Source of the DNA: Minisyncoccia bacterium
GTDB taxonomy: Bacteria > Patescibacteriota > Minisyncoccia > Phycocordibacterales > PALSA-1337
Assembly: GCA_044234345.1 (NCBI GenBank)
Contig: JBIIIW010000002.1
Span: 1 to 53,251, forward strand
DNA: 53,251 bases
Direction of reading: 5' to 3'
The notes under the pieces were generated by a model, which worked only from the letters and a program-made list of their open reading frames with translations, was not told the DNA's origin and did not search any database. A program made the position numbers and the translations under genes. Positions 2,194 through 51,198 of this stretch are shown piece by piece. Within the stretch, counting starts at the first letter, position 1, and each line of letters starts with the position of its first letter.

Positions 2194-2202
2194 TGCTAGA
2201 AT
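2194..2202 (+). promoter_or_regulatory. Extended -10 promoter element TGCTAGAAT
   Basis: TGn+TAGAAT ends 6 nt before the ATG at 2209. No SD-like purine tract lies between them. Confidence 0.5.
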
Positions 2203-2208
2203 CAAGCT

Positions 2209-5750: not shown

Positions 5751-5770
5751 TCGTCTGATATTGTTTGTAA

Positions 5771-15270: not shown

Positions 15271-15318
15271 ATATCTGAATCTCTTTATAATCCTCCCCAC
15301 ATGACATATAATTAGCAA

Positions 15319-17322
15319 ATGCTTAATCAAATAAAGAAAACATCAGTATATATAAAGAGTATAGAATACTTAATATATTTCTTCATTGCTACATTTCCAT
15401 TTATTAACTACACATATTTCTTGTATACAGGTTCATCTACAAGATCTGTAAACCTAATTATCCTCTCATCAATCTCACTTGTATTGTTGATTGCATACTT
15501 TTTCAACAAGAGAAATAGCATACCAGTACCCAAGTCATATGCCTTGATATCCCTCATTGCTTACCTAGTATTAATGATTGTGTCAGCTACTTTAGGTGAA
15601 AGTTTCTCAAACTCATTCTGGTCAATGGCAACAAGAACATCTGGGATATGGTATTTACTTAATCTAGGTGTATATATTTATACACTCTGGATACTTTTGG
15701 TTGATAGGGCTAAACAAGACAGACTAATACTAACAATATTAATATCAACAGCAATATACTCTCTGCTATCATTCCTAAGTCCTGAGGGTATTGGTTGGTT
15801 GTTTAAGGGATACGAGTCAGACGGATTTACATTCGGTAATTCATCGTTTGCTGGTATGTATATACTCGGAGCATTCCTGTTATCTGCATACTATCTTCTA
15901 AAATCAGAAAGTAAAAAGTGGTGGATGTATGTACTACCGATTGTTATTGTCATTAACCCAAACATAATTAATAGCTCAATATTTTTAGGTGATTTCTCAA
16001 ATGGTGTAATCGGAGAAGCTAGGGCATCATCATATCTAACACTAGCTTCTATATTCTCAGTTATCTCCCTATACTACATTTCAAAGATTAAGGTGATAGG
16101 AGTAAAAAAGAAAATAGTATATACGTTATCTATATTAGGAATCGTGTTACTTGGTCTGTTCTCAATCTCATTGCTGTCACCAGATGGATACTTTAGAAAT
16201 CTGTATCTAAGCAAGGCAACAGGAGCTAGGCCGTTGGTATGGGAGGTTTCAGAAAAAGTTATATCAGAGAACCCATACTTAGGATGGGGATCAGATAACT
16301 TCGAAAGAGTGTTTGAATTAAAGTATGATAACAGGTTACTCCAGGATAGTTATGGAGCAGAAGCATGGTTTGATAGGGCACATAACGTACTAATCGATCA
16401 GCTAGTAGATAACGGTTTTGTCGGCCTAATACTGTATATTGCAGTGTATTTGGCGATAATATTTTCAATGTTGAAGGTATATCTTGGAACAAAAAATAAT
16501 GAAGATAGAATCCTTTCTTCAATATTAATTACATACTTTGCGGTCCATTTCGTAGAACTTCAAACTGCATTTGATACGACAGTATCTTATATAATGCTTG
16601 CATTAATGTTCTCGCTATCAGTATCGCTATACTCCAGATTTAAGTCGGAAGAATTTAACAAGAGCGATGTAATTGAACTAGGTGGAGTATATAAGTATAT
16701 ATCTCTATGTATAGCCTCAGTCGCAGTTATATCTTCAGTGATATTCGGTCTAATCCCTCTCATACGTTCAGAATACTCAAATGGAGTTGTAAGGACAGTA
16801 GGAACATCAGAAGGAAGAATGGAGGCATATAAAACTCTAGTATCATCACCTGTAGATCTACACTCATTCCTATGGAGAATGACAACAGATCTAAAGAAAG
16901 GTATTGGAAGTAACCCAAGCATACTAAATGACAAGCAAAGATTTACCATGCTCGGTAAGGAGATTCAGCAACTTACAGAGTACTACAGACAGTATGTTGT
17001 AAAGAATCCTAATCACTTTAGAGCAAAGTTAAATCTTGCTGATATGTTAATATATCAGAGGTTGTTTGGTATCGATCGATTAAGTGAAGCTCAGTCGGTT
17101 TTGGATGATGCAATTAAGTTGGTACCACAAGCACCACAGTCATATTGGATGAAGTCTGTTGCATACCTATACACAAAGAGGTTTGATCAAGCTCGAGAGT
17201 ATGCTGATATGGCGTTAAAATTGAATCCTAATATAGATATAAGTAAGGATTTAGTTAAATATATTGATAAGTCAATTAAGGATTTCCCAGTAATAGACCT
17301 ATATAACTTTAGACAAATTTAA
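15319..17322 (+). CDS. O-antigen ligase/Wzy_C family polytopic membrane protein with a C-terminal TPR domain
   Basis: 667 aa with many TM helices. WGSDNFERVF...RAHNVLIDQLVDNGFVGLILY resembles the Wzy_C signature. The C-terminal roughly 150 aa are TPR-like. Confidence 0.75.
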   Translation: MLNQIKKTSVYIKSIEYLIYFFIATFPFINYTYFLYTGSSTRSVNLIILSSISLVLLIAYFFNKRNSIPVPKSYALISLIAYLVLMIVSATLGESFSNSFWSMATRTSGIWYLLNLGVYIYTLWILLVDRAKQDRLILTILISTAIYSLLSFLSPEGIGWLFKGYESDGFTFGNSSFAGMYILGAFLLSAYYLLKSESKKWWMYVLPIVIVINPNIINSSIFLGDFSNGVIGEARASSYLTLASIFSVISLYYISKIKVIGVKKKIVYTLSILGIVLLGLFSISLLSPDGYFRNLYLSKATGARPLVWEVSEKVISENPYLGWGSDNFERVFELKYDNRLLQDSYGAEAWFDRAHNVLIDQLVDNGFVGLILYIAVYLAIIFSMLKVYLGTKNNEDRILSSILITYFAVHFVELQTAFDTTVSYIMLALMFSLSVSLYSRFKSEEFNKSDVIELGGVYKYISLCIASVAVISSVIFGLIPLIRSEYSNGVVRTVGTSEGRMEAYKTLVSSPVDLHSFLWRMTTDLKKGIGSNPSILNDKQRFTMLGKEIQQLTEYYRQYVVKNPNHFRAKLNLADMLIYQRLFGIDRLSEAQSVLDDAIKLVPQAPQSYWMKSVAYLYTKRFDQAREYADMALKLNPNIDISKDLVKYIDKSIKDFPVIDLYNFRQI

Positions 17323-20841: not shown

Positions 20842-20963
20842 CTATAACCCTATATTCTGTTAGATTGATTGCAATAAGGTCAGAGACAGAAGGCAAACAC
20901 TTAAGACCTTCCGAGATACTCTAATACCTTAAAAGGTCGTATTATCAAAATTAGTACATTTAT

Positions 20964-21878: not shown

Positions 21879-21918
21879 AAAAAACCACCCGATATCCTTG
21901 ATATTGGGTGGTTTTTTG
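21879..21918 (+). terminator. Rho-independent terminator
   Basis: AAAAAACCACCC...GGGTGGTTTTTTG, a long stem with a T run. Confidence 0.9.
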
Positions 21919-21933
21919 CTATTATGTATAACT

Positions 21934-22569
21934 ATGGAAATACTAGCAAAACTCTTCGGAAGTGAGACAAAGGTGAAATTTATGAGACTATTTCTGTTTG
22001 GTAATGATATGGCATATTCAGCCTCTGAGATAATGGAGAAGAGTAGAGCTAATAAGAAGGATACTAAGAAGGAGCTAGCAGGTCTAATGGCTGCGGGGAT
22101 AATAAAGAAGAAGATTATAACTAGAGATGTACACCAGAAGAAGGGTAAGAAGATTGTTCTAAAGAAGGTACAAGAAACTGGTTATGCATTAGATCAGAAG
22201 TTCCCTTATCTTCAGGCTCTAAAGAACCTATTAATCATGGTTAGTCTGCATGCTAATGATAGCTTAGTAAAGAAGTTTGCTAGTGTTGGAAGAATCAAAC
22301 TATTTATAGCATCAGGGGTATTTATACAAGAGTGGGATACTAGAGTAGATCTGCTAATAGTGGGGGACGATCTTAATCTAAGTAAACTGGACACAGTGAT
22401 GAAGACAATAGAGGCTGAGGTTGGAAAGGAGATAGTATACTCTGCATTTGAGACTAGTGATTTTGAATATAGATATGGAATGCACGATAGATTGATACGA
22501 GACATACTTGACCTACCTCATACAGCTCTTGTGGATAAGCTAGGGATTGAGGAAAATAAAATGCTATAA
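21934..22569 (+). CDS. Hypothetical protein with an N-terminal winged-helix-like domain
   Basis: The track ORF starts at 21898, inside the terminator. The ATG at 21934 lies 8 nt after the extended -10 TGCTATTAT (21917-21925). Confidence 0.6.
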   Translation: MEILAKLFGSETKVKFMRLFLFGNDMAYSASEIMEKSRANKKDTKKELAGLMAAGIIKKKIITRDVHQKKGKKIVLKKVQETGYALDQKFPYLQALKNLLIMVSLHANDSLVKKFASVGRIKLFIASGVFIQEWDTRVDLLIVGDDLNLSKLDTVMKTIEAEVGKEIVYSAFETSDFEYRYGMHDRLIRDILDLPHTALVDKLGIEENKML

Positions 22570-22610
22570 TATAAGGTATTAGTAATAATTAATAGCTTAT
22601 AATATATTAT

Positions 22611-23303
22611 ATGAATTTTGTAGAAAACTGGAGTGGAGTATTCACTCAATCATTGCAAGGTATTTGGTTCGGAGTAGTTAGTTTTGTTCCTAACTTAATA
22701 ATTGCAGTAATAATATTCGCAATTGGTTGGATACTTGCTTCTCTTATCGAAAAGCTAGTAGAAGGTATCTTCAAGTCATTTAAGGTAGACAGTCTTCTAA
22801 AGACAGCTGGTCTTGAGGATGTAGTTGAGAGATCAGGACACAAGCTTAATTCAGGACGTTTCATCGGTGCACTTATCAAGTGGTTTGTAATCGTAGTATT
22901 CTTGATTGCATCATTTGATATCCTAGGTCTAACAGAAGTTAACCTATTCTTGAAGGATGTAGTTCTATCATACCTTCCACAAGTTATTATCTCAGTTCTA
23001 GTACTTATGGTTTCAGTTGTTATCGCTGATACTGTACAGAAACTGGTTGTTGCATCAGCAAGAGCTGCTCATGTTAAATCAGCTTCACTACTAGGAGCAA
23101 TTGCAAAGTGGTCTATCTGGATCTTTGCTCTACTTACAGCACTATTCCACCTAGGTATCGCTCCAGCACTTATCCAGACATTGTTCATGGGTATCGTAGT
23201 TGCAGCAGCACTAGCTACAGGACTTTCATTTGGTCTTGGAGGAAAGGAAGTTGCAGGAAGAATGCTTGAGAAATTGATACACACAGTATCTGATAAGGAG
23301 TAA
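22611..23303 (+). CDS. Conserved-TM-helix repeat membrane protein, mechanosensitive-channel-related
   Basis: 230 aa with repeated amphipathic/TM units (VPNLIIAVIIFAIGWILASLIEKLV...). TATAAT lies 7 nt before the ATG. Confidence 0.6.
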   Translation: MNFVENWSGVFTQSLQGIWFGVVSFVPNLIIAVIIFAIGWILASLIEKLVEGIFKSFKVDSLLKTAGLEDVVERSGHKLNSGRFIGALIKWFVIVVFLIASFDILGLTEVNLFLKDVVLSYLPQVIISVLVLMVSVVIADTVQKLVVASARAAHVKSASLLGAIAKWSIWIFALLTALFHLGIAPALIQTLFMGIVVAAALATGLSFGLGGKEVAGRMLEKLIHTVSDKE

Positions 23304-23363: not shown

Positions 23364-23392
23364 TTGACTTCTTTTACGCCTTCGTATACACT
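23364..23392 (+). promoter_or_regulatory. 23S-5S promoter TTGACT-N17-TACACT
   Basis: It has the same -35 hexamer as the 16S promoter. A boxA-like TGCTTTTTAAGTA lies further downstream in the leader. Confidence 0.5.
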
Positions 23393-27414: not shown

Positions 27415-27440
27415 AACAGATACATTTATCTGGTTTTTTG
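27415..27440 (+). terminator. Terminator of the 23S-5S unit
   Basis: CAGATA-CATT-TATCTG hairpin followed by GTTTTTTG. Confidence 0.55.
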
Positions 27441-27453
27441 CTATAATACACTT

Positions 27454-28245
27454 ATGGCATCATGGTCAGCTAAAAGAAAATTGAGTTATGCATCAATAGT
27501 TTTTGGTGTAATTTTAATATTTATAATCATCCCCTCCTTCTATTTCTTCTACAAGGCACCTACATGTTTCGATAATATTATGAATGGAGACGAGACTGGA
27601 ACTGATTGTGGTGGATCCTGTGCAAGATTGTGTCAGAGTGCATTCCTCCCACCAAGAATTGAGTGGGGAGGAGCAAAGATTGAGAAGCTTGCAGATGGAC
27701 TATATAACGCAGCATCATATATTGTTAACCCAAATATAAACGGAGGAGCAGTAGATGTGCCGTATAAGATATCGCTATACGACTCAGAGGGAATATTAAT
27801 AACAGAAAAGAATGGAACAGTTAACCTGTATCCAGGTAGAAACTCATTAGCATTCCAGACAGCAATAAAGACATATAAAAGAATACCTACCAAAGCAACA
27901 TTTGAATTTCTGAAATCACCAGTATGGTTTAAATCAACTGACAGACTTGGTGGAATATTTGTGGTAGACAAGAAGTACAATGAAGATCAAAATGGATCAT
28001 CACTAGAAGTGACACTGGAGAACAAAAATCTAACTACATACAATAATATAAATGTGTCCGTTGTTCTCTCTGATATAGATGGTAATGTAATTGGTTTTTC
28101 TCAAACAAGAGTGGACTCAGTAGGAGTAAAGGGAGTAAATGAAAACTATAGGGAAGTAGCTCCATTTACATGGCCGATAAGTAGAGATGGTAAAGTTACC
28201 TCAATAGAAGTAATGCCTCTCATTAGACCTGTACTCGTTCAATAG
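27454..28245 (+). CDS. Hypothetical membrane-anchored protein with a Cys-rich motif
   Basis: 263 aa with an N-terminal TM helix, then CFDNIMNGDETGTDCGGSCARLC. The extended -10 TGCTATAAT ends 6 nt before the ATG. Confidence 0.65.
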   Translation: MASWSAKRKLSYASIVFGVILIFIIIPSFYFFYKAPTCFDNIMNGDETGTDCGGSCARLCQSAFLPPRIEWGGAKIEKLADGLYNAASYIVNPNINGGAVDVPYKISLYDSEGILITEKNGTVNLYPGRNSLAFQTAIKTYKRIPTKATFEFLKSPVWFKSTDRLGGIFVVDKKYNEDQNGSSLEVTLENKNLTTYNNINVSVVLSDIDGNVIGFSQTRVDSVGVKGVNENYREVAPFTWPISRDGKVTSIEVMPLIRPVLVQ

Positions 28246-29407: not shown

Positions 29408-30575
29408 TATATACATCTAGTGTATCCTTTATCATCTTTTCAATTGAAAAATCAGTAAGTGATTTTCTATGTAATTCATCCCCATGCTCCTTCCTTACCT
29501 TCTTATGAGTTAGATAGAAATCAATAGCATTACGTATCTCACTTGGCTTCTTAGCTTGTATTAATATACCAGACTTCATATCATCAATTATCTCAGGAAT
29601 ACCACCAACAGCAGTAGCTATAACTGGAAGACTAGCTACACCAGCTTCAAGTAGGACATATCCAAAACTTTCAGAAATAGAGGGAAGAAGAAATATATCA
29701 ATACTCTTTAGATACAAATACACATCTTTAATATTACCAAGCATAATTACGCTATTACCCACACCCAATTCCTTAATTAATTTCTCCAAACTATCCTTCT
29801 CCTCTCCACCTCCAATTATCAAATACAATATGTTCATCTTGGATTCAATAACTTTAGGAGACTTAATCAATTCAGCAATACCTCTAATTGCATATTCATG
29901 ACCTTTAACGTGATGAAGTTCTCCAACAGATCCAATGACAATTGTCTTCTTAGGATCAAGAGTCTCAAGTCTCTCTTTAAGTAGGGGACTAACTTTCTTA
30001 AGTTCCTGCTCAGCATTAACCTTAGAGAAAATAGGTTCAATCTTAACAGCATTGTGTACAACAGTAATCTTGTTACCAATAGTGGGCCAAATATCAATCT
30101 GATCCTTCAGACTCTTAGAAACAACAATAGTTCTGTGTGTAAGTAGGATTGTAACAATGTGGATGAGCTTGATAACTAGCTTTGATACAAGACTACGATC
30201 CTCGTTAAAAGCCCAGCCATGAGAGGTAAATATGATTCTGGGAACTCTAGCCAGCCTACCAGCAAGAGCGCCAAGGCCACCAATTTTAGAGCTATTAATG
30301 TGTAATATATCCGGTCTATCCTTCCTTAATATGCCAACTAGCTTAAAAAACGCCTTAATATCACCAATTAGACTAATATCTCTTCCGATAGGGAGAGAAC
30401 CATTTGCATCAATACCTCTATCATTCAAACGAGTAATTAATTCACCATTACCACCAGCCATAACTGAAACATCATACTCTTCTTTAGAAAGACCTGTCGC
30501 AATATCAAAAACATAGCGTTGAGCACCGCCCCAGTTAGATTTAGTTATTAAAATCAGTACTTTCTTTTTCTGCAT
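29394..30575 (-). CDS. Glycosyltransferase family 4 (GT-B fold)
   Basis: The GT4 pattern includes the C-terminal SISESFGYVLLEAGVASLPVIATAVGGIPEII (EX7E-like). The first ATG is at 30575; the track start at 30596 is TTG. The 3' end overlaps rodA by 14 nt, convergently. Confidence 0.85.
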   Translation of the reverse strand: MQKKKVLILITKSNWGGAQRYVFDIATGLSKEEYDVSVMAGGNGELITRLNDRGIDANGSLPIGRDISLIGDIKAFFKLVGILRKDRPDILHINSSKIGGLGALAGRLARVPRIIFTSHGWAFNEDRSLVSKLVIKLIHIVTILLTHRTIVVSKSLKDQIDIWPTIGNKITVVHNAVKIEPIFSKVNAEQELKKVSPLLKERLETLDPKKTIVIGSVGELHHVKGHEYAIRGIAELIKSPKVIESKMNILYLIIGGGEEKDSLEKLIKELGVGNSVIMLGNIKDVYLYLKSIDIFLLPSISESFGYVLLEAGVASLPVIATAVGGIPEIIDDMKSGILIQAKKPSEIRNAIDFYLTHKKVRKEHGDELHRKSLTDFSIEKMIKDTLDVYTSAL

Positions 30576-30622
30576 CTTTGTGTTATAATGTTGCAATTAA
30601 ATAGTTATAACCGAATTATACA

Positions 30623-31951: not shown

Positions 31952-31967
31952 GCTATAATTTTACTCC

Positions 31968-33029
31968 ATGAATACTATTTTTATAACTGGAGGAGCGGGA
32001 TATGTTGGAGCAATGCTACTAGACCTATTTTCTAGAAGACCTGACGTAAAGCAAATTATAGCAATTGATAAGGAGCCATTTCCTGAATTCCTTAAGACAA
32101 GTGGAGCAGATGTAAGTAAGATTAAGTTCATCGTTACAAACACTGCAGACTATAACTGGCAGAATGAAGTAAAGTCATATGCTCCTAATATAGTTATACA
32201 TACAGCATGGCAGATACGCGAGATGTATGGAAACAAGAAGCTACAGTGGAGATGGAATGTCGAAGGATCTGATAACATATTTGATTTTGCATTCAGTACA
32301 CCTTCAGTTAAAAAATTAATACACTTCTCAACCGTAGCCTCATACGGTGCATTTAGTAGTAACACAATAGAGCACCTATTCACCGAAGAAGAACCATTCA
32401 GAAAATCTCCATACCTATACGCTGAAGAGAAGAGAATAACAGAAGAGCATTTGATAGAGAAATACAAGAAGGCAAAGAAGGATGGATCTAATATACAACT
32501 TGCGATAATACGACCCGCAGCAATTACCGGACCTCGTGGAAGATATATGAGGATTAGATTTGGTCTACAATCAGCCTTGTCAGGAAAGCTTAAGGGATCA
32601 GTTATCTACAAATTAGTAAGTCTAATGGTATCTTTTGTACCCATAACAAAGAAGTGGTGCAGACAGTTCATACATGAAGACGACATAGTAGGAGTAGTTG
32701 AAACACTAGCATTCAATCAACTTAAAAATGATTTTGATATTTTCAATGCATGCCCACCAGGACCAGTAGTAACTGGAAAAGATATGGCAGAAGCAGTTAA
32801 CAAAAAATCAGTTATGGTAAACCCATACCTAATTAGAGTTGTATTCTTCTTCATGTGGAATCTAACACTTGGAAGAATACCTACATCAAAAGGAGGATGG
32901 AAGTCATACTCATATCCTATCGCTGTGGATGGTACTAAGATGACAAAGATGTATGGATATGGTTATAAGTGGCAATCTAAGCAAGCTTTTGTAACTAAAG
33001 AGGGGACATATTCAAAATATGTTGTATAG
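31968..33029 (+). CDS. NAD-dependent epimerase/dehydratase family protein
   Basis: 353 aa with the Rossmann motif ITGGAGYVG and an SDR-extended YxxxK-like region (YLYAEEK). Confidence 0.85.
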   Translation: MNTIFITGGAGYVGAMLLDLFSRRPDVKQIIAIDKEPFPEFLKTSGADVSKIKFIVTNTADYNWQNEVKSYAPNIVIHTAWQIREMYGNKKLQWRWNVEGSDNIFDFAFSTPSVKKLIHFSTVASYGAFSSNTIEHLFTEEEPFRKSPYLYAEEKRITEEHLIEKYKKAKKDGSNIQLAIIRPAAITGPRGRYMRIRFGLQSALSGKLKGSVIYKLVSLMVSFVPITKKWCRQFIHEDDIVGVVETLAFNQLKNDFDIFNACPPGPVVTGKDMAEAVNKKSVMVNPYLIRVVFFFMWNLTLGRIPTSKGGWKSYSYPIAVDGTKMTKMYGYGYKWQSKQAFVTKEGTYSKYVV

Positions 33030-36421: not shown

Positions 36422-36449
36422 TTGCAAAAACACTGTAAATCTCTATAAT
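36422..36449 (+). promoter_or_regulatory. secDF promoter TTGCAA-N16-TATAAT
   Basis: A consensus -10 ends 9 nt before the secD ATG, implying a 1-3 nt leader. Confidence 0.6.
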
Positions 36450-36458
36450 AGTCATATT

Positions 36459-37808
36459 ATGCTTAAAACAAGAATTATTGCTGTATTCATACTTATTATC
36501 ACATTCAGTATTGGATGGTTTACATATTACAAAGGAGAGTTTAAGTTAGGCCTTGATCTAAACGGTGGAACACACCTAGTTTACAAAGCTGATGTAAGTA
36601 AGATATCTGGCTCTGAAGTTAGAGTATCAATGGAAGCACTAAGAGATGTTATCGAGAGAAGGGTTAACGTTTTTGGAGTTGGTGAACCTATAGTTCAGGT
36701 TGAGCAAAGTGGAATCTTGGGTTCAGAAGAAGCTCAGCAAAAACTAATAGTTGAACTACCAGGAGTTACTGATATTGATCAAGCTGTAAAGATGATTGGT
36801 CAAACTCCAGTTCTAGAATTTAGAACAGTAGACAAGAAGGATGCAGAAGCATTGGGAGCTAATACTGATCTAACTGATGAAGAGAAGTCTATTGAACTTG
36901 CTAAGCTATTCAAGCCTACCGCTATCACAGGAAGACTTCTAGAGAAAGCAGTACTTGAGTTCAACTCAACAACAGGAGAACCTTCAGTATCTCTAAACTT
37001 CAATGCAGAAGGTAAGACATTGTTTGCTAAGGTAACAAAGGAGAATGTTGGAAACATCGTAGGAATATTCCTAGATGGCAGTCCAATATCTCTACCAACT
37101 GTTAGAGAAGAGATACGAGATGGAAAGGCAGTTATATCTGGAGCATTTAGTCTAGAAGAGGCAAAGCTTCTTGTTAGAAATCTAAATTACGGAGCACTAC
37201 CGGTTCCAATTGAACTTATCTCAACACAAACAGTAGGTGCATCTCTTGGACAGTCAGCACTTAACGGAGGTATCAGAGCTGGAGTAATTGCGCTCCTTGT
37301 TATAGCTATATTCCTAGTTATCTGGTACAGACTACCAGGATTCATTGCTGTTATATCTCTAGCTGTATATACAATAATTAACTTAGCACTATTTGAACTA
37401 ATCCCTGTAACTCTTACAGCAGCTGGTATCGCTGGATTTATACTCTCAATAGGTATGGCAGTAGATGCTAACATCCTAATATTCGAGAGAATGAAGGAAG
37501 AATTGAGAGCAGGTAAGAGTATAAGTGATGCAATGCATGAAGGTTTTGCAAGAGCATGGCTATCAATACGTGATTCAAACACATCAAGTATTATCACAGG
37601 CCTAATCCTTTACTACTTCGGAAGTACTTCGGTTATAAAGGGATTTGCATTGGTATTCTTGATCGGTGTTGTTGTAAGTATGTTCACAGCAGTTACAGCT
37701 TCACGTATATTCCTATACGCTGTATCTCCAAAGAGAACAAACAGATTCTCAATGTTTTTGATAAGTAACGGTTTTACTAAGACAATTATTAATCCTAACC
37801 TTAAATAA
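36459..37808 (+). CDS. secD: Protein translocase subunit SecD
   Basis: 449 aa. LGLDLNGGTHLVYKAD, a periplasmic domain, then six C-terminal TM helices with GMAVDANILIFERMKEE. Confidence 0.93.
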   Translation: MLKTRIIAVFILIITFSIGWFTYYKGEFKLGLDLNGGTHLVYKADVSKISGSEVRVSMEALRDVIERRVNVFGVGEPIVQVEQSGILGSEEAQQKLIVELPGVTDIDQAVKMIGQTPVLEFRTVDKKDAEALGANTDLTDEEKSIELAKLFKPTAITGRLLEKAVLEFNSTTGEPSVSLNFNAEGKTLFAKVTKENVGNIVGIFLDGSPISLPTVREEIRDGKAVISGAFSLEEAKLLVRNLNYGALPVPIELISTQTVGASLGQSALNGGIRAGVIALLVIAIFLVIWYRLPGFIAVISLAVYTIINLALFELIPVTLTAAGIAGFILSIGMAVDANILIFERMKEELRAGKSISDAMHEGFARAWLSIRDSNTSSIITGLILYYFGSTSVIKGFALVFLIGVVVSMFTAVTASRIFLYAVSPKRTNRFSMFLISNGFTKTIINPNLK

Positions 37809-38843: not shown

Positions 38844-38871
38844 TTGACTTTAAATCTACTTCGAGTAGAAT
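38844..38871 (+). promoter_or_regulatory. 16S promoter TTGACT-N16-TAGAAT
   Basis: Strong -35/-10 match, about 240 nt upstream of the 16S 5' end. Confidence 0.55.
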
Positions 38872-39107: not shown

Positions 39108-40607
39108 TTAGTTAAGAGTTTGATCCTAGCTCAGGATGAACGCTGGCGGCGTGGATAAGGCATGCAAGTCAAACGGTGTAGCAATACACAGTGGCAGACG
39201 AGGTAGTAATAAGTAGGTATCAACCTTGAAGTCAGGGATACCTCATCGAAAGATGAGTTAATACTTGATAGTCTCTTCGGAGTAAAGATTTATCGCTTCA
39301 AGATGAGCCTGCTCGGTATCAGCTAGTTGGTGAGGTAAAAGCTCACCAAGGCTATGACGCCTAGGGGACCTGAGAGGGTGACCCCCACCGATGGAACTGA
39401 GACACGGTCCATACACCTACGGGTGGCCGCAGTCGAGAATCTTCCGCAATGGACGAAAGTCTGACGGAGCGACGCCGCGTGAACGATGAAGTCCTTCGGG
39501 ATGTAAAGTTCTTTTGCCAGGGAGAAAGTTTATTGATAGTACTTGGCGAATAAGAGGTTGCTAAACTCGTGCCAGCAGCAGCGGTAATACGAGTGCCTCA
39601 AGCGTTATCCGGAATCATTGGGCGTAAAGGTTGTGTAGGTGGTTATATTAGTCTTTTGTTAAATTCTTCGGCTTAACCGGGGACATGCAAAGGAAACGGT
39701 ATGACTAGAGGATGCGAGGGGTCTGCGGAACTCATAGTGTAGCGGTAAAATGCGTTGATATTATGGGGAACACCAAAAGCGAAGGCAGCAGACTGGAGCA
39801 CTCCTGACACTGAAACAAGAAAGCGTGGGTCGCGAATGGGATTAGATACCCCAGTAGTCCACGCCCTAAACGATCTTCTCTAGTTTTTCGGAGTATCGAC
39901 CCTCTGAGAGACGTAGCTAACGCGTTAAGAGAAGCGCCTGGGTAGTACGACCGCAAGGTTAAAACTCAAAGGAATAGACGGGGACTTGCACAAGCAGTGG
40001 ATCATGTGGTTTAATTCGATGATAAACGAAGAACCTTACCAGGGTTTAATCTAGCTGAAGACAAGAAGAAACTTTTGTCGTCGCAAGACAGTTAGTCAGG
40101 TGATGCATGGCCGTCGTCAGTTCGTGGCTTGAGTTGTTCCCTTCAGTGGGGTAACGAACGCAACCCTCGTTGTCTGTTATATTTGTCAGGCGAGACTGCC
40201 CACGACAAAGCGCATACATCGGTTCAATCCGATTGTGCTCTGTGTCGTGGGAGGAAGGTGAGGATGACGCCAGGTCAGCATGTCCCTTATACCCTGGGCT
40301 ACACACGTGATACAATGGATGGTACAACAGGACGCAAAACCGAAAGGTGGAGCAAATCCCTATAAAACCATTCTCAGTCCGGATTGAGGTCTGCAACTCG
40401 ACCTCATGAAGCTGGAATTGCTAGTAATCGCAGGTCAGCTATACTGCGGTGAATACGTTCTCAAGTCTTGTACTCACCGCCCGTCAACTCAAGGGAGTTG
40501 GGAATACCCGAAGTCTGCGCTAGTCGCGGCCTAAGGTAAGCTCAATGACAGGGAGTAAGTCGTAACAAGGCACGGGTAGCGGAAGCTGCTCGTGGATTAT
40601 TTCAATT
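39108..40607 (+). rRNA. rrs: 16S rRNA
   Basis: AGAGTTTGATCCTAGCTCAG at the 5' end, GTGCCAGCAGCAGCGGTAATAC, GGATTAGATACCC, and AAGTCGTAACAAGG with helix 45 at the 3' end. The tail reads GGATTATTTCAATT instead of GGATCACCTCCTTA. Confidence 0.95.
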
Positions 40608-41317: not shown

Positions 41318-41350
41318 CAGAATATTTCATATATGCTACAATTAGCATAT

Positions 41351-42298
41351 ATGAAAACAACACCAAAAGATTTCTTTTTGCACTTAGGAGCAACAGTAAC
41401 TTTGTATACCGTAGTAGGAGCATTGATAAGCCTATCATTCAGTATCATAAACTATTACTTCCCAGACGCTCTGGCTGGATCATTCTATGCTAATTCAGTA
41501 GCATGGCCAATATCACTTCTAGTAGTTTTGGTACCCACACTTTACGTAATTGAATGGTATATCGAAAAGGACATTAAGAAGAACCAAGAGAAGAAGGAGT
41601 TATGGGTAAGACGATGGAGAATATTCGTTACAATGTTTCTAACTGTCGCTTTGATAGTCGGAGATTTGATAACACTAATCAACACATACTTAAACGGAGA
41701 GATTAGTGCAAGATTTGTATACAAGGTATTAGTAATCCTAGTAATTTCAGCATCAGTACTTATGTACTACTTCTTCAGTCTAAACGAAGATATGAAGTGG
41801 TCTAAGTGCTCAAAGAAGACTATACCTTGGTTTGGAATATTAATATCACTAATTGCAATCATAACTGGTTTTGTAATCGTAGGTTCACCAACTAAGCAGA
41901 GAAATATACGATTTGATAACCAAAGAATTGGAGATCTACAGAATATACAATGGCAGGTTGTAGGATACTGGCAGCAGAAGAACAAGTTACCAGGAAATCT
42001 AGATGCACTAATAGATCCAATATCAGGAACAAGTATTCCAAACGATCCAGAGACAAAACTACCATATAAATATACAGTAACTAACAATACTTCATTTAAG
42101 ATTTGTGCAACATTTGCTCTACCAGTACAGAATACAGATGGAAGAGGGGAATACTATGGAAGTAGTAGATATGATATTGCTATGTCATACCCATCATTTG
42201 GTGTAGATGAAAACTGGAAGCATGAAGCAGGAGAGACATGTTTTGATAGGAAGATTGATCCAGAGAAATATCCTCAGATTAAAAGTTACAGAGAATAG
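41351..42298 (+). CDS. Polytopic membrane protein (DUF5671-like N-terminus) with an extracytoplasmic C-terminal domain
   Basis: The start is chosen at MKTTPKDFFLHLGATV, 8 nt after the extended -10 TGCTACAAT (41334-41342). The track start at 41333 is less likely. Confidence 0.65.
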   Translation: MKTTPKDFFLHLGATVTLYTVVGALISLSFSIINYYFPDALAGSFYANSVAWPISLLVVLVPTLYVIEWYIEKDIKKNQEKKELWVRRWRIFVTMFLTVALIVGDLITLINTYLNGEISARFVYKVLVILVISASVLMYYFFSLNEDMKWSKCSKKTIPWFGILISLIAIITGFVIVGSPTKQRNIRFDNQRIGDLQNIQWQVVGYWQQKNKLPGNLDALIDPISGTSIPNDPETKLPYKYTVTNNTSFKICATFALPVQNTDGRGEYYGSSRYDIAMSYPSFGVDENWKHEAGETCFDRKIDPEKYPQIKSYRE

Positions 42299-42343: not shown

Positions 42344-42372
42344 TTGCAATATGCCCTAAGTTAGGGTAATAT
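42344..42372 (+). promoter_or_regulatory. pyk promoter TTGCAA-N17-TAATAT
   Basis: The -10 ends 8 nt before the ATG at 42381. Confidence 0.55.
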
Positions 42373-42380
42373 TGTTAACT

Positions 42381-43751
42381 ATGAATAAATTTAAAAAAGC
42401 AAAGATATTAGCAAAGATTGCTGATAATCGTTCTGAACCAAGTTATCTAAAGTCATTATTCGATGCTGGAGCTGATATTGCTTGGCTAAATACTGCCCAC
42501 CAAGATGAGCCTGCTACTCTTGATGTAATGAACAAGATTAAGGCAATTACTACAGATATCCCTATAATGATCGATACAAAGGGCCCTGAGGTGCGTATAA
42601 AGGACATTACAACCCCTTTTGAGGTTAAGGCTGGAGATTCACTCATCTTCACAGGAGACCTGTCATATACAGGCCCTAACGTCGTTCACGTAACATACCC
42701 TAATTTCCATAATGAGGTGCCAGTTGGAGAGGTAGTGCTATACGATGATGCTTCAATCGAAACTATCGTTGAAGAGAAGCTAGAGAAGGGTATTAGATGT
42801 GTTGTGAAGAACGGTGGACTAATCAAGAACAAGAAGAGTCTAAACATTCCTAATGTACACATTAAGCTTCCAGCATTGTCAGACAAGGACAAGAGTTTCA
42901 TCCACTTCTGTGCAAAGAATGATGTAGACTACATCATCCACTCTTTCGTTAGAACAAAGGAAGATATATTTGAGATAAAGGAAATTACAAAGCAGTATCC
43001 AGCATACACAGGAAAGATACTAGCAAAGATTGAGAACAGAGAAGGATTCGATCATATCGAAGAGATACTAGAGAACTGTGAAGGACTTATGGTTGCTCGT
43101 GGAGATCTAGGTGCAGAGGTTCCTCTAGAAGAACTTCCATACATGCAGAAGAAAATGGTAGAGGCATCTCTACGTCATGGAAAGTACTGTATCGTTGCGA
43201 CACAGGTACTAGAGAGTATGATAAAGAACCCAAGACCAACTCGTGCAGAAGTAACAGATATTGCTAATGCAGTACTAGATGGAACAGATGCAATCTCAAT
43301 GTCAGGAGAAACAGCATACGGAGACTACCCACTAGAAGCTACAAAACTTATGGGTCGTGTAATGGCATATACAGAGAATATGAGAGATAGTCTAATACAC
43401 TTCACTCAACTACCAACAAGTACATCAAAAGAATTTACTGATGCAAAGAAAATTGTAGATATGGCTACAAAGGAAAATGCAAAATCAATATTTATATCTA
43501 CATCTGATATAGCTATCGTCCGTGCAATGGCAGCATACAGACCAACTGCTACAGTATTTGCAGGATGTATAAATGAGAAGGATCAGAGAGAATTGAGACT
43601 AGCATATGCAGTTTTGAGCTTTACAGTTAAGACTACAGATATAAAGGAGCTAGCTCAAAATGCTAAAGATGTGCTTAAGGGAGACGATAAAGTTGTCGTT
43701 GTAGATGCTTCAGGAGCAGTTTCAGTGAAGAAATATGCTGAAATAGCATAG
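42381..43751 (+). CDS. pyk: Pyruvate kinase
   Basis: KILAKIENREG, MVARGDLGAEVP and SGETAYGDYP motifs. The first ATG is at 42381; the track start at 42372 is TTG. Confidence 0.93.
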   Translation: MNKFKKAKILAKIADNRSEPSYLKSLFDAGADIAWLNTAHQDEPATLDVMNKIKAITTDIPIMIDTKGPEVRIKDITTPFEVKAGDSLIFTGDLSYTGPNVVHVTYPNFHNEVPVGEVVLYDDASIETIVEEKLEKGIRCVVKNGGLIKNKKSLNIPNVHIKLPALSDKDKSFIHFCAKNDVDYIIHSFVRTKEDIFEIKEITKQYPAYTGKILAKIENREGFDHIEEILENCEGLMVARGDLGAEVPLEELPYMQKKMVEASLRHGKYCIVATQVLESMIKNPRPTRAEVTDIANAVLDGTDAISMSGETAYGDYPLEATKLMGRVMAYTENMRDSLIHFTQLPTSTSKEFTDAKKIVDMATKENAKSIFISTSDIAIVRAMAAYRPTATVFAGCINEKDQRELRLAYAVLSFTVKTTDIKELAQNAKDVLKGDDKVVVVDASGAVSVKKYAEIA

Positions 43752-43820: not shown

Positions 43821-43834
43821 TCCATAATTAATAC

Positions 43835-44581
43835 ATGGTAATAAAAAATACAAAACAATACGAAGTAGCAGATACGAACCTGTTTCTAGATAACACAAAT
43901 AGAGAGTATATATTAAAAGTACATGATCTACCAATTGATAGTAGACCAAGAGAGAAGTTGATAAAGAGAGGACCAGAGTCGCTCTCATTACAAGAGCTAT
44001 TAGCAGTAATACTAAACACAGGAACTAAAAGTGAAGGAGTGTTAGAGATGTCATCAAGGATAATTCATGAGTACGGAGAGAAAAGTATAATGTCAGAGAC
44101 AGATGTAAAAGAGCTATCACTAGAGTTAAACATACCAATTGTTAAAGCATGTCAGATAGCTGCATGTGGAGAGATTGGAAGAAGGATATATCAGAAGAAT
44201 GATTATGGATTCTCAGTTATACGAACAGCAAAAGATGCATTTGAGTATCTCAAAGAAATGCATAGTCTTCCCAAAGAGCAGTTAAGAGGTTTGTATCTCA
44301 ACAGTCATAATATGGTAATACATGATGAAGTGATATCTATAGGTACAATAAATACAAATATAGTACATCCGAGAGAAGTGTTTAGACCTGCAATAGAGCA
44401 CAATGCTGTAGCTCTGGTACTTGCCCACAATCATCCTTCTGGGATAGTAACACCAAGTACACAAGACATTGAGATAACAAATCAACTAATTAATGCAGGG
44501 AAGATACTTGGAATACATGTCCTAGATCATGTAGTCATTACTAGAAATACTTATGCAAGTATTAATGCTAAATATAACTAA
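43835..44581 (+). CDS. radC: RadC-like JAB/MPN domain protein
   Basis: 248 aa. PREKLIKRGPESLSLQELLAVIL (HhH part), then LAHNHPSG, the JAMM motif. Confidence 0.88.
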   Translation: MVIKNTKQYEVADTNLFLDNTNREYILKVHDLPIDSRPREKLIKRGPESLSLQELLAVILNTGTKSEGVLEMSSRIIHEYGEKSIMSETDVKELSLELNIPIVKACQIAACGEIGRRIYQKNDYGFSVIRTAKDAFEYLKEMHSLPKEQLRGLYLNSHNMVIHDEVISIGTINTNIVHPREVFRPAIEHNAVALVLAHNHPSGIVTPSTQDIEITNQLINAGKILGIHVLDHVVITRNTYASINAKYN

Positions 44582-44582: not shown

Positions 44583-44897
44583 ATGAGAACATATACAATC
44601 ACATCACCATACATAGATGGAATACTGTCAGATGATCAAATATACTTTGAGGGAGTTAACAGGCCTGGAGAAATATATACAATTAGAGATTCAGGTACAG
44701 GGTACAATATAGATATTTTAGAGAAATACTTCAATGACCTATATAATCTCTTTCTAAGAAAACTCTCATCATTTGCAATGTTTGAGAATACCGACGATGA
44801 AGAGGTTGTTAAGATGCAAGCGCTATTACAAGAGCTCGTAAAGGTAAAGAAAATGATACAAAATGCATCAGTTGATACAGATGATAATTTAGTATAA
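44583..44897 (+). CDS. Hypothetical protein, 104 aa
   Basis: The ATG at 44583 lies 1 nt after the radC stop. The track start at 44553 overlaps radC. No family recognised. Confidence 0.5.
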   Translation: MRTYTITSPYIDGILSDDQIYFEGVNRPGEIYTIRDSGTGYNIDILEKYFNDLYNLFLRKLSSFAMFENTDDEEVVKMQALLQELVKVKKMIQNASVDTDDNLV

Positions 44898-44906
44898 TGT
44901 GTACTT

Positions 44907-46205
44907 GTGAACTACAAAGAATTCTTCAATAAAAAAAGTATAGCAGTGATAGGTCTAGGACCACATGGAGAGATGGTCCCTGATATCAAATTTTTGCTTA
45001 GAAACAAGGCAAATGTTGCTGTATATGATATGAGAAGCGAGAGAAGGATGAAGGACTATGTAACTAGCCTTAAGGACTACGGTCTAGATAGGTACTCTTT
45101 CGGTAAGATAAATGATGAAGAATTATCTAACTTTGATCTAATAATACTTTCTCCAGAAATATCCAAGAAATCATTCTTCCTTAAGAAAGCAATACAATCA
45201 GAAATTCAGATAGAGTTTCCTGAAACCCTATTCTTCAAACTCTCTCCACCTATAACACTTGTGGGTATACTAGGTTTGTATGGTAAGACAACTATATTCA
45301 ATATACTGCTTAATATTCTTAAGAAGTCTTTTGAGAATTACAAGAATCAAGGAATATTCGCAATTGATCCAGAATCCAACTCTGGAGCGCTATTACATCT
45401 TAAGAAAATTAAGAAGGATGATGTAGTAATTGCTCGTATTCCAGAGAGCATGATATCTCACTATCACGATATACATATCAGTCCTCATGTAGCTGTGATT
45501 ACATCTAAGATTAATTTTGATATCCTAGACTATCAAACATATAACAACTTCATAGTTGCTTCAGACAAGGTGGTGGATAGTATAAAAAAGGAGAAGGATG
45601 GAGTACTAAAAGCTAAGATACTTAGAACAAGATCAAGTACTGTACCTACTGATTGGATAGTTAACACAAAAGGTAAACATGATAGAGATAACATATCACT
45701 AATATTACAAACTAGTGAGCTATTCAAAGTCTCTCCAGAGATTGTTAGAGAAGTAGTTGAAGATATTGCATATAATAAAGGATGTTTGGAGTTCGTTAAG
45801 AAGGTATCAAATGTTGAGTTCTATAATGACTCGAATTCAATAACTCCACACTCAACAGTCTCTGCATTGGAGTCTTTTGCTAATAACAAAGACATTGTAC
45901 TCATAATCGGTGGTGCATATACAGGACATGACTATACAGAATTAGTTAAGAGTATTAAGGAGTATATGCCTAAGGTGATATTGATAGCTGGTAGTGGGAG
46001 TCTTGGTATACGTAACAATATATCAGAGATAGAGAATATATCATTTACTCAATCAATATCTCTAGAGGAAGCTGTATCTAAGTCATTAGAGATATCAAAC
46101 AAGGGAGGTGTAGTAATATTTAGTCCAGGTTTTGATGCTGTTGGGGTGCATATATCTAGAAAAGAAAGGGGAGAAAGATTCGTAAAGATAGTAAAATCTC
46201 TCTAA
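44907..46205 (+). CDS. murD: Divergent MurD-like Mur ligase (UDP-MurNAc-L-Ala--D-Glu ligase)
   Basis: GTG start. N-terminal Rossmann IAVIGLGPHG, a P-loop variant GLYGKTT, and the C-terminal FYNDSNSITP...LIIGGAYTGHDY, which parallels MurD NDSKATN...GGxDKGxD. Confidence 0.7.
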   Translation: MNYKEFFNKKSIAVIGLGPHGEMVPDIKFLLRNKANVAVYDMRSERRMKDYVTSLKDYGLDRYSFGKINDEELSNFDLIILSPEISKKSFFLKKAIQSEIQIEFPETLFFKLSPPITLVGILGLYGKTTIFNILLNILKKSFENYKNQGIFAIDPESNSGALLHLKKIKKDDVVIARIPESMISHYHDIHISPHVAVITSKINFDILDYQTYNNFIVASDKVVDSIKKEKDGVLKAKILRTRSSTVPTDWIVNTKGKHDRDNISLILQTSELFKVSPEIVREVVEDIAYNKGCLEFVKKVSNVEFYNDSNSITPHSTVSALESFANNKDIVLIIGGAYTGHDYTELVKSIKEYMPKVILIAGSGSLGIRNNISEIENISFTQSISLEEAVSKSLEISNKGGVVIFSPGFDAVGVHISRKERGERFVKIVKSL

Positions 46206-47077
46206 TCACCACATATCATACAAACAACCGATCCATTCCACTCTCTGCCTGTATATACTGCTTGCATAAGTCCAGCAACTGATAGGGCACTGTTTGTAGA
46301 TATAGCTATCTCTGTATTCTTCAATACTAATTCTTGAGCAACTGATATCTGTTCATTGCTTGCAATCCAAGCACTCCCGTTATTCCCCTTAATTAACTCA
46401 ATTAATACATTCTTCCTAATTGCAGTCTGATCTACGATAGCATCAGCAATAGATAGTTCATCAATTGGCAAATCATCAATTAACTCATTTGATATCGGAT
46501 GACATGATGATGTCTGAACAATATGTACTTCAACAGCTCTGCCTTTGTCTTTAAAGAATTGAGATAGGGCTTGAGCGGTAGTACCTGAAGATGTACCGAT
46601 AAAGACAGCATTAAGATCTGGTATCTCTAGTAATTCATCTGCTAGTGATTTGTAACCCTCCAAAGCAATGTCGTCTGTAGATTGTCGCAGTGCCTTAACA
46701 CTAGGGTCCTTTGTTATGTTAAACAAAGTCTGTATTGGTCTGTCGTGTGAAGTAATACTAATCTGATCATTCTTGAATTGCTCAAGCTTACGTAGCTTCT
46801 TTGTAGTTATGTGTTGCCCAACAAGTATATCTAGTTTGATCTTGTTGAAGTTCCCCTTGTTAAGTTTCTGTACATGAAATGCTGCTGCTAGAGCTGCATT
46901 ACCTGAAGAAGAGATTGCGAAGTGATTGATACCAGTAGATACATAGCTATCAATCATAACAGGGATAGATCTACCCTTATGAGACCCATACGGATGAAGA
47001 TCCTCTCTTTTGAGATAGAGAGACTTCATTTCTAGTGATTCTGCTAGTTTAGGATATGATTCCTGTCTTGTAATCAT
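46202..47077 (-). CDS. PLP-dependent enzyme of the tryptophan-synthase-beta (PALP) fold family
   Basis: 291 aa. LYLKREDLHPYGSHKGR carries the candidate PLP lysine, and a GTSSGTTA glycine-rich loop follows. Substrate unknown. Confidence 0.7.
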   Translation of the reverse strand: MITRQESYPKLAESLEMKSLYLKREDLHPYGSHKGRSIPVMIDSYVSTGINHFAISSSGNAALAAAFHVQKLNKGNFNKIKLDILVGQHITTKKLRKLEQFKNDQISITSHDRPIQTLFNITKDPSVKALRQSTDDIALEGYKSLADELLEIPDLNAVFIGTSSGTTAQALSQFFKDKGRAVEVHIVQTSSCHPISNELIDDLPIDELSIADAIVDQTAIRKNVLIELIKGNNGSAWIASNEQISVAQELVLKNTEIAISTNSALSVAGLMQAVYTGREWNGSVVCMICGD

Positions 47078-47135
47078 GTTGATATATTACACCATTTTAG
47101 GTAGTATTAGTAGATAACAGTTATACAGAAAATAT

Positions 47136-50399: not shown

Positions 50400-50445
50400 A
50401 CAACATAGATTAACATAAAAGTCTCTATTATGATAATCTATATAT

Positions 50446-51198
50446 ATGAACACAAAACTAATTTCTTCTGGTGCTTTGTCGGTCATAGAGCAATACAAAG
50501 ATGTGCCATATTTCAATAACAAGACAAAGGCAAGAAGAGCAGGACTAAGAGTTGAAGTAGGTAAGGGAAGTCCAAAAGAGATACATGATGAGTTGAAGGA
50601 TATAGCATTAATTAACAAGATCGATCTAAATAACTTAGATGGTGTATCAACTAAAAAGTTGTTGGTTGATAACAATATTGGGATAGACTGCTCGGGGTTT
50701 GCATACTATGTACTAAATGAGGAGAGTATAGCTAGAGGAAAAGGAACCTTAGATAAATATCTATATTTTGTTAAAGCATCTAATTTTATTACCAGACTAA
50801 TTGTAAAATTTAAGCCTCAAACAAATACAGATGTTGTTACTCTAGCCGATGATAGGAATAGTAAGTACATACTATTGAGAGATGTTGAAGTCGGTGACAT
50901 GATAACTATGGTCGGTGGACCAGAGGGTGGAGAGAGAAACCATATACTCATTATAAACCAAATCGAATATCAAAACTTCGTACCAGTGGTATTACACTAT
51001 GCTCATTCAGTTGCCTGGCCAACAGATGGAGAATACGGACACGGATTGCATAAAGGAATAATTGAGATTACTGATATTAATAAGGGGATAACTGAACAGA
51101 GATGGATCGAACTTGAGAAGACAGGAGAAGAAAACTATACCTTCATGCGAGCACTAAAGTCCAAAACAGAAGTACGTAGGTTAAGATGGTTTAGCTAA
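50446..51198 (+). CDS. NlpC/P60-like cysteine peptidase domain protein
   Basis: 250 aa. GIDCSGFAYYVL holds the catalytic Cys motif, and His candidates follow (NHILII, HYAHS). The extended -10 TGATAATCT ends 6 nt before the ATG. Confidence 0.6.
   Translation: MNTKLISSGALSVIEQYKDVPYFNNKTKARRAGLRVEVGKGSPKEIHDELKDIALINKIDLNNLDGVSTKKLLVDNNIGIDCSGFAYYVLNEESIARGKGTLDKYLYFVKASNFITRLIVKFKPQTNTDVVTLADDRNSKYILLRDVEVGDMITMVGGPEGGERNHILIINQIEYQNFVPVVLHYAHSVAWPTDGEYGHGLHKGIIEITDINKGITEQRWIELEKTGEENYTFMRALKSKTEVRRLRWFS

Follow-up and report, generated by a model that had tools for sequence, protein, structure and literature searches.

It was found that many genes in a 53-kb stretch of DNA from a Minisyncoccia bacterium (contig JBIIIW010000002.1 of assembly GCA_044234345.1, positions 1 to 53,251; hereafter the window) carry a TATAAT-like box only several nucleotides (nt) before the start codon. 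Judging from the sequence, it is quite probable that these boxes are sigma-70-type -10 elements placed so that the mRNAs start at the start codon or 1-3 nt before it, which would make the mRNAs leaderless. The window has a GC content of about 37% and is part of a Parcubacteria/Paceibacteria genome (candidate phyla radiation, CPR). It carries about 45 protein genes, mostly housekeeping ones, including those for aminoacyl-tRNA synthetases, S6, SSB, EF-P, RecA, FtsK, L10, L7/L12, FtsW, SecDF, pyruvate kinase and Mur ligases. A preliminary description of the window had listed ten pairs of a motif and an ATG, and the coordinates and sequences of all ten proved to be right. When the 70 nt upstream of every open reading frame (ORF) in the window were inspected, it was revealed that the boxes had been under-counted.

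The anchor of the list is the secD promoter (36422..36461, plus strand), in which TTGCAA (36422-36427), 16 nt, TATAAT (36444-36449) and a spacer of 9 nt lead to ATG 36459. The spacer is defined here as the number of nt between the -10 hexamer and the start codon. The hexamer TATAAT is present 54 times in the window, counting both strands. Twelve copies lie 0-40 nt upstream of gene starts, and six of them end 6-9 nt before the start, where about 0.1 would be expected. As a control, the proximal 60 nt were shuffled with the dinucleotides preserved. Among 28 first-in-unit genes of the window, TANNNT at spacer 6 was found seven times against 1.5 ± 1.2 in the shuffles, TATAAT at spacers 5-9 four times against 0.5, and TGnTANNNT at spacers 5-9 four times against 0.3.

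Is this arrangement found in related genomes as well? Related loci (numbered with the prefix L) were collected by scanning a genome collection with pyruvate kinase, which gave 32 loci, all from metagenome-assembled genomes (MAGs) of Patescibacteria/Parcubacteria. Their labels are Paceibacterota, Taylorbacteria and Nomurabacteria, with third-party annotation (TPA) assemblies labelled "Saccharibacteria". A further 15 loci came from scanning a metagenome collection with L10, and SecD homologues added six loci with public gene calls. For the pooled enrichment, 282 first-in-unit genes of 50 related Parcubacteria loci were used, with start codons assigned blind to the motif (the first ATG of a long ORF). 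TANNNT at spacer 6 occurred 55 times against 10.8 ± 3.4 in the shuffles (z = 13), TATAAT at spacers 5-9 occurred 32 times against 2.8 (z = 18), and TGnTANNNT at spacers 5-9 occurred 39 times against 3.2 (z = 20). Shine-Dalgarno (SD)-like words were flat in the same upstream regions of the related loci. Thus, the comparison of -10-like motif distances with shuffled controls, proposed as a check in the preliminary description, gave an enrichment both in the window and in the related loci.

Decoy starts do not show the peak. The first ATGs of 1,682 spurious ORFs have the motif at spacer 6 in 1.6% of cases, as against 17.4% at real starts, and in-frame start codons deep in genes have it in 6.5%, as against 39% at called starts. 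An AT-rich control, Bacillus anthracis pXO1 (50 kb, GC 33%), gave an SD peak and no -10 peak in the same pipeline. With the public gene calls of the six further loci, TANNNT at spacers 5-9 precedes 39 of the 68 non-coupled genes and two of the 16 tightly coupled ones. Over the whole sampled clade, the signature is present in 41% of the non-coupled genes and, at a control position, in 19%; the corresponding counts for the window are 15/30 and 5/30.

Could the boxes be chance words? TANNNT-like words are common in DNA of 37% GC, and ten of them near ATGs might always be findable. TANNNT occurs 2,960 times in the window, about 18-24% of the shuffled upstream regions hold it at spacers 5-9, and a two-hexamer promoter scan of the window returned no overall excess but fewer sites than the shuffles (162 against about 193). 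The total of this generic scan is uninformative, and the -10 signal is positional and not count-based. Against the dinucleotide shuffles the z values range from 5 to 23, neither the decoy ORF starts nor pXO1 have a peak, and the boxes are conserved in orthologues, as described below. Chance is already refuted by these results, and I leave it practically no weight. An artefact of taking the first ATG after a stop codon, whereby an in-frame TAA or TAG would mimic TANNNT at spacers 6 and 9, was also rejected because the spurious-ORF decoys lack a peak and a TA[CT]NNT peak persists. Separately, -10-like words are depleted inside genes of the window and the related loci relative to codon-shuffled sequences (TATAAT 0.55x in sense and 0.65x in antisense; TGnTANNNT 0.72x and 0.78x). 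This depletion is consistent with selection against spurious promoters, being partly confounded by TA-dinucleotide avoidance.

The anatomy of the sites is that of promoters. In the aligned TANNNT sites at 5-9 nt, the hexamer consensus is TATAAT. T and G account for 48% each at the extended -10 (TGn) positions, where the background of G is 19%, and T reaches 53% at 23/22 nt before the first base of the hexamer, the place of a -35 TT across a 17-nt spacer. Expectation maximisation (EM) with zero or one occurrence per sequence (ZOOPS) on 384 first genes gave the consensus TGnTATAAT, with T at 0.94, A at 0.95, the final T at 0.98 and lambda = 0.33. The spacers in this run were 6 (48%), 7 (14%), 8 (16%) and 9-10 (17%). 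The same procedure degenerated to lambda = 1, with weak matrices, on small sets (the window only, internal genes), and only the 384-gene run was used. The -35 signal is weak genome-wide; the TTGCAA elements at N16 of secD and at N17 of pyruvate kinase are conserved.

The rRNA genes provide an untranslated reference. The 16S rRNA promoter (38844..38871, plus strand) consists of TTGACT, 16 nt and TAGAAT about 240 nt before the 16S gene, and the 23S rRNA promoter (23364..23392, plus strand) consists of TTGACT, 17 nt and TACACT. Thus, the rRNA promoters have the same hexamers at ordinary distances. Several of the boxes before protein genes begin inside the T-tract of a preceding intrinsic terminator, such as the one at 21878-21918, which is followed by TGCTATTAT. 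Terminators also directly precede the boxes of the genes starting at 27454, 2209 and 15319. In these respects the boxes behave like sigma-70-type -10 elements, as had been proposed, rather than like AT-rich noise or a site for ribosome binding.

Transcription from sigma-70 promoters starts about 7 nt past the last base of the -10 element and prefers a purine after a pyrimidine. With such a start, a 6-nt spacer places the +1 position on the A of the ATG. The modal spacer is exactly 6 nt, in agreement with the proposed geometry, in which the canonical transcription start would coincide with the start codon. At -1 of box-associated starts, 74-89% of the bases are pyrimidines and only 0-7% are G. 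In secD, a pyrimidine-A step is conserved at the seventh nt after the box, which predicts a 5′ untranslated region of 3 nt. A mechanism can be proposed as follows. The polymerase would recognize a TGnTATAAT promoter, often with an extended -10 element and with a weak TTG at -35 across 17 nt, and would start about 7 nt past the box, which is on the A of the start codon at the modal spacer of 6. At spacers 7-9, the transcript would begin 1-3 nt before the start codon, or the same start site would be used. The 5′-terminal AUG (sometimes GUG) of the leaderless mRNA would then be recognized directly by the ribosome-bound initiator tRNA, without SD pairing.

The 16S rRNA agrees with the absence of SD signals. 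Its 3′ tail (40594..40607, plus strand) is GGAUUAUUUCAAUU, aligned by the Rfam covariance model to the model's GGAUcACCUCCUUu, and the anti-SD is absent. Since the tail reads GGAUUAUUUCAA and has no CCUCC, SD pairing is impossible here. The tail is GGA(U/A)UA(U/A)UUCAA in 14 relatives, with the variants GGAUUAUUUC, GGAUUAAUUC and GGAAUAUUUC across lineages, and every relative whose 16S end is in hand is without the anti-SD. The preliminary description had noted the missing anti-SD in the window, and the absence of CCUCC extends to these 14 relatives. Pairing of the -22 to -1 region to the canonical or the altered tail was not in excess over shuffled or distal controls in any gene class. An SD-like GGGGGAGG was noticed about 14 nt before the ATG of a Mur ligase gene (48645, minus strand), at 48660-48675 within the upstream gene. 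It is presumably coincidental coding sequence, since the 16S rRNA has no anti-SD; the orthologues in L004, L006, L016 and L026 have TATAAT or TATACT, 6 nt and ATG instead.

The altered tail raises another idea, namely that the box is a new AU-rich ribosome-binding site, because 5′-AUUAU-3′ in the tail complements AUAAU of UAUAAU. This complementarity is visible by inspection, a spacing of 5-9 nt would suit an SD as well, and the 16S tail is conserved across the clade. However, the duplex energy of the tail with the -22 to -1 region is no better than with shuffled or distal controls. The extended -10 TG and the -35 TT at 17 nt are promoter-specific features which are not complementary to the tail, and the conserved positions are T, A and the final T of TANNNT rather than a contiguous AUAAU. 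Moreover, a ribosome-binding site would be needed most by the tightly coupled internal genes, yet the motif hardly ever precedes them, and the rRNA genes are driven by the same consensus. I rejected pairing of TATAAT with the tail as a replacement SD on these grounds, and it is very unlikely to account for the boxes.

The boxes and their spacings are conserved in orthologues while the flanking sequences diverge. In secD, the module ATTGCAAAAA, 7-8 variable nt, AAATCTCTATAATAG, 6 nt and ATG is present in five of six orthologues with 79-84% amino acid identity, although what lies upstream differs: the window has a 3.4-kb island there, and the relatives have a sugar transferase or an epimerase. 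The pyruvate kinase promoter (42344..42383, plus strand; TTGCAA, 17 nt, TAATAT, 8 nt, ATG 42381) is kept as TTGCAA-N17-TAnnAT-8-ATG in L001, L002, L003, L005 and L007, the sequence of the 17-nt spacer having diverged. A pyridoxal phosphate (PLP)-dependent enzyme gene (46202-47077, minus strand) has its promoter site at 47075..47092, with GTGTAATAT at 47092-47084 (hexamer TAATAT), 6 nt and ATG 47077; TA(A/G)TAT, 6 nt and ATG are found in 10 of 14 loci, down to 46% amino acid identity. The gene for a 263-residue protein after the 5S rRNA (27439..27456, plus strand; TGCTATAAT, 6 nt, ATG 27454) has spacer 6 in six loci and spacer 5 in one more (L053), at amino acid identities as low as 29%. In the MurD-like gene (44893..44909, plus strand; TATAAT, 8 nt, GTG 44907), both the GTG start and a box at 6-8 nt are kept in eight loci.

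Other sites, all on the plus strand unless stated, are similar. RadC (43823..43837) has CATAAT, 6 nt and ATG 43835, and its orthologues have GGTATAAT or TGCTACAAT, 6 nt and ATG. The DUF5671 gene (41334..41353), which follows tRNA-Ile by 16 nt, has TGCTACAAT, 8 nt and ATG 41351, and its orthologues have TGGTATAAT, 6-9 nt and ATG. In the epimerase gene (31954..31970; TATAAT, 8 nt, ATG 31968), the box begins 2 nt past the stop codon of the upstream gene and is conserved in L051, L053 and L054. The GT4 glycosyltransferase gene (30573..30590, minus strand) has either CATTAT at 30590-30585 (spacer 9) or TATAAC at 30587-30582 (spacer 6) before ATG 30575, and its relatives have TATTAT, 9 nt and ATG or TGGTACTCT, 6 nt and ATG. 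The gene for a Wzy_C/TPR protein (15307..15321) has TATAAT, 6 nt and ATG 15319, and the L035 orthologue has TATAAT, 6 nt and ATG straight after a terminator. The box of an NlpC/P60-like gene (50431..50448; TGATAATCT, 6 nt, ATG 50446) is shared with L003 and L004, which are close relatives, and with no others. Gene 21934 (21917..21936) has TGCTATTAT, 8 nt and ATG 21934, and its box starts within the T-tract of the rplL terminator (21878-21918). An M16 peptidase gene (2194..2211) has TGCTAGAAT, 6 nt and ATG 2209, and no orthologue of it was found among the fetched loci. A gene for a hypothetical protein of 125 residues (5756..5773) has TGATATTGT, 6 nt and ATG 5771, the box lying within a 78-nt repeat element.

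How are the genes inside transcription units translated? In the pooled loci, the gaps between same-strand genes peak at -4 (13 cases), -1 (10), +1 (16), +3/+4 (15) and +10 (12). TANNNT precedes 9% of the genes at a gap of 0-5 nt, which is below the background, 27% of the overlapping starts, and 54-59% of the genes at a gap of 6-24 nt. These frequencies indicate that genes are either tightly coupled or provided with their own promoter, and I interpret the genes at 6-24 nt as carrying promoters of their own. In nine of 22 hexamers in the latter class, the stop codon of the upstream gene itself supplies the TA. The over-represented class with a gap of 10 nt (12 cases) has the form TAAnnT, 7 nt and ATG, where the stop codon TAA makes up the first three bases of the hexamer (31951-31970 is an example in the window).

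For genes which overlap the upstream stop codon or lie 0-5 nt from it, the absence of a box is consistent with translational coupling, and they would presumably be translated by termination-reinitiation. At 6-24 nt, a gene would usually use its own box, sometimes built on the upstream stop codon. The M16 peptidase gene is joined to the methionyl-tRNA synthetase gene by a TAATG overlap (3478..3482, plus strand; start 3480), and other overlaps are ATGA at 34715-34718 (start 34715) and TAATG at 9848-9844 on the minus strand (start 9846). It had been claimed that operon-internal genes use TAATG/ATGA overlaps. The part of the claim that tight genes have no box of their own stands, but among the tight junctions of the window, about 11 in number, only three are overlaps and the others are gaps of 1-5 nt.

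The preliminary picture of leaderless mRNAs plus re-initiation omitted a third class, leadered mRNAs without an SD. Examples are rplJ, rplL, 13294, 30623, 9846-12062 (minus strand) and 22611. A structured leader precedes rplJ (20880..20963, plus strand) and is conserved, also in L034-L042. It consists of AAGACCTTCCGAGG, a variable hairpin, CTCTAcgCCCTTA and then AAAGGTCGT, with GACCTT and AAGGTC as the closing helix. The GACCTT/AAGGTC pairs are all invariant in the alignment and thus give no covariation support, and a search for the L10 leader in Rfam gave no match. The element may be a divergent L10 leader. In the window, rplJ is not preceded by rplK-rplA; according to the literature, Parcubacteria without the anti-SD are largely without uL1. 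The rplL gene follows rplJ after an AT-rich gap of 31 nt with no conserved box, the sequence upstream of 13294 is conserved over about 60 nt, and 9846-12062 has a conserved box at 21 nt. The leaders are A-rich and G-poor, with T at -1. A substantial minority of the units would therefore be leadered and translated by an SD-independent route, probably through A-rich, G-poor, unstructured leaders.

The MscS-like gene (22562..22613, plus strand) belongs to the leadered class as well. One of the ten listed boxes, TATAAT at 22598-22603 with spacer 7 to ATG 22611, is indeed present but is absent from the orthologues, whereas TGCTATAAT at 22562-22570, 40 nt upstream of the ATG, is a conserved promoter. 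Its mRNA probably carries about 34 nt of leader. As a separate observation, the RecA ORF (8341-9405, minus strand) has about 30 extra Lys/Glu-rich residues at its N-terminus (position 3 of the profile is residue 33), and the closest TATAAT precedes the first ATG by 23 nt. Either the extension is genuine and the leader short, or the start was mis-assigned.

Are the mRNAs mostly leaderless, as had been suggested? A large class with this geometry is real, but a default mode is an overstatement: the excess over decoys is 35-44% in the clade, the EM lambda puts the share with high-quality boxes at 0.33, the raw value is 57% with public gene calls, and the window has 15 of 30. Several points weigh against leaderless transcription as the explanation. 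Only about 35-57% of the non-coupled genes fit the geometry, and start codons in the pooled set were assigned by rule. Spacers of 8-9, including that of the secD anchor, would predict leaders of 1-3 nt and not a strict 5′-AUG. The pyruvate kinase box is about 24 nt upstream in the more distant L011, L015 and L029 (8 nt in the window). The spacing of 21934 is 7-8 nt in the window, L037 and L048 but 21-32 nt in L034, L036, L043 and L045. The box of 30623 is at 33 nt in the window (TGTTATAAT) and at 7 nt in three relatives, and the proximal box at 22598 is probably secondary to the conserved upstream promoter. Such variation among relatives indicates that the leaderless status is evolutionarily labile and that leadered translation works too.

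These points feed another explanation, in which the boxes do act as promoters while most of the transcript pool has leaders. The starts would be variable or lie further upstream, by read-through or from second promoters, the short spacing would reflect genome compaction, and translation would be leadered and SD-independent. Leadered genes without an SD clearly exist, 22611 has a conserved upstream promoter in addition to the proximal box, the distance from box to ATG is labile among orthologues, and the intergenic regions are very short. On the other hand, compaction predicts broadly distributed short distances and not an exact 6-nt peak with a pyrimidine at -1. The strong terminators right before several boxes (21878-21918 and those before 27454, 2209 and 15319) leave no space for a second promoter, and spacer 6 is kept even where protein identity falls to 29-46%. 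I consider this explanation rather unlikely, and leaderless transcription from the positioned boxes remains the preferred reading.

Some repeats lie close to the promoters described above. In the DUF5671 gene, an inverted repeat with 14-bp arms (TTTCATATATGCTA.CAAT.TAGCATATATGAAA; 41325-41356) covers both the -10 box and the ATG. In the pyruvate kinase gene, the spacer between -35 and -10 is filled by a palindrome with 7-bp arms (42352-42368, including a 3-nt loop), which is kept in L001. Both are candidate operators overlapping leaderless promoters. The 78-nt element forms direct repeats of 90% identity (5692-5769 and 6282-6359) on either side of gene 5771-6148 (hypothetical). A third copy, which has diverged, lies at 18077-18154 before 18145, and a further one, inverted, at about 43770-43800. 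The element includes an inverted repeat of 26 nt (5690-5715 / 5725-5750) and has a -10 box at its end. The first copy supplies the geometry from box to ATG 5771, and the copy at 6282-6359, about 150 nt before rpsF, has TGATACAGT without an ATG at the matching spacing. GGATAAAATTTT-like motifs are found upstream of the RadC and 18145 orthologues in relatives. The element may have arisen by duplication of a promoter/operator module, or it may mark where a gene cassette was inserted.

Upstream of secD, an insert of about 3.4 kb (33248-36194) lies between the epimerase gene and secD and contains four ORFs, including one for a Mrr-type restriction endonuclease (33272-34381). The two genes are only 77-85 nt apart in the relatives L053 and L054. 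It is an inserted island that leaves the downstream secD promoter module intact. The 23S-5S unit (23669-27389) and the separate 16S gene (39108-40607), followed by tRNA-Ile, are unlinked and 12 kb apart, the 23S coming first. The 23S gene (23669-27181) is 3,513 nt in length against a model of 2,925 positions, which leaves about 590 nt as inserted sequence, and an ORF (24103-24510, minus strand) lies inside the gene. The relatives L005, L010 and L013 have insertions of about 1 kb in the 16S gene. Inverted repeats flank the 23S gene (23630-23678 / 27170-27218, 49 nt, 84%) and the 16S gene (39082-39106 / 40771-40795, 25 nt, 92%), and they are presumably processing stems.

What do these results mean for the lineage? 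It was reported by Tsurumaki et al. (2022) that the anti-SD has been lost in about half of the Parcubacteria, that an SD helix is probably not formed, and that it is not known what the conserved helix h26 does (PMC9297842). Campbellbacteria and Wolfebacteria are among the "SD-scarce organisms lacking CCUCC" (PMC10783764). Both studies concern the same loss from the 3′ end of the 16S rRNA, in the broad lineage to which the window belongs, and they give no initiation mechanism and no geometry of -10 boxes and start codons. The word "leaderless" does not appear in Tsurumaki et al. (PMC9297842). A literature search on leaderless mRNAs and SD use in CPR, Patescibacteria and Parcubacteria found no paper linking the loss of the anti-SD to leaderless mRNAs, which does not prove that the link is unpublished. 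I would give even chances to the following general view: the anti-SD-less Parcubacteria/Paceibacteria, as a class-level lineage, gave up SD pairing and use three SD-free routes, of which leaderless mRNAs positioned by promoters are the principal one, and the promoters have been compacted into the stop codon or the terminator T-tract. Leaderless mRNAs, stop-start coupling and SD-free leaders would then be a concrete answer to the published gap of how Parcubacteria initiate translation without the anti-SD. For start-codon prediction in CPR MAGs, a model of the -10 box and spacer would be preferable to a model of the ribosome-binding site, and expression cassettes for culturable CPR bacteria would need TGnTATAAT-N6-ATG and not an SD.

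The architecture and the loss of the anti-SD were already known; what distinguishes the present case is the lineage, for which the architecture seems not to have been described before, the absence of an SD back-up and the fusion of promoters to stop codons and terminators. Leaderless genes have a recognized computational signature, a Pribnow box located 6-8 nt from the start (GeneMarkS-2 group C, PMC6028130). As in Mycobacterium, Streptomyces, Corynebacterium and Deinococcus, or group C in general, TANNNT lies 6-8 nt before first-in-operon starts (PMC6028130). Also as in these leaderless-rich bacteria, a quarter to half or more of the units are concerned, and both AUG and GUG serve as 5′-terminal starts. 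In contrast, those bacteria keep the anti-SD and use the SD for leadered and internal genes, while there is neither CCUCC nor an SD signal here. The assumption made for group C, namely that leadered and internal genes use SD-type ribosome-binding sites (a modelling assumption and not a strict definition), does not hold in this case. The genomes studied here also differ in being AT-rich, in the frequent extended -10 TGn and in boxes fused to upstream stops and terminator T-tracts. The leaderless mRNAs of the known bacteria are supported by differential RNA sequencing (dRNA-seq), while those of this study are predicted from sequence. Bacteroidota/Flavobacteriia (Baez et al. 2019) resemble the leadered and internal genes here in not using the SD and in having A-rich, G-poor upstream regions, but their mRNAs are leadered with Kozak-like A positions and there is no -10 box at the start codon (PMC6847099).

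If the leaderless reading is correct, a lineage with reduced ribosomes would be added to the cases in which leaderless mRNAs are prominent. Such an addition is relevant to the question of whether this mode is ancestral or derived by reduction. Leaderless mRNAs are the main class in haloarchaea, Sulfolobus and Nanoarchaeota (GeneMarkS-2 group D) and in mammalian mitochondria. The likeness extends to the ribosome, since some of these lineages and the mitochondrial 12S rRNA are without an anti-SD, and the ribosomes are reduced. Tsurumaki et al. pointed out that the ribosomal protein losses of CPR bacteria resemble those of mitoribosomes (PMC9297842). Unlike the boxes described here, archaeal promoters have TATA/BRE boxes at about -26, and mitochondrial leaderless mRNAs arise by processing of polycistrons and not by promoter placement. 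On the general view given above, these Parcubacteria would be a natural bacterial counterpart of mitochondria and leaderless archaea, and a natural model for initiation driven by the 70S ribosome and initiator tRNA without an anti-SD.

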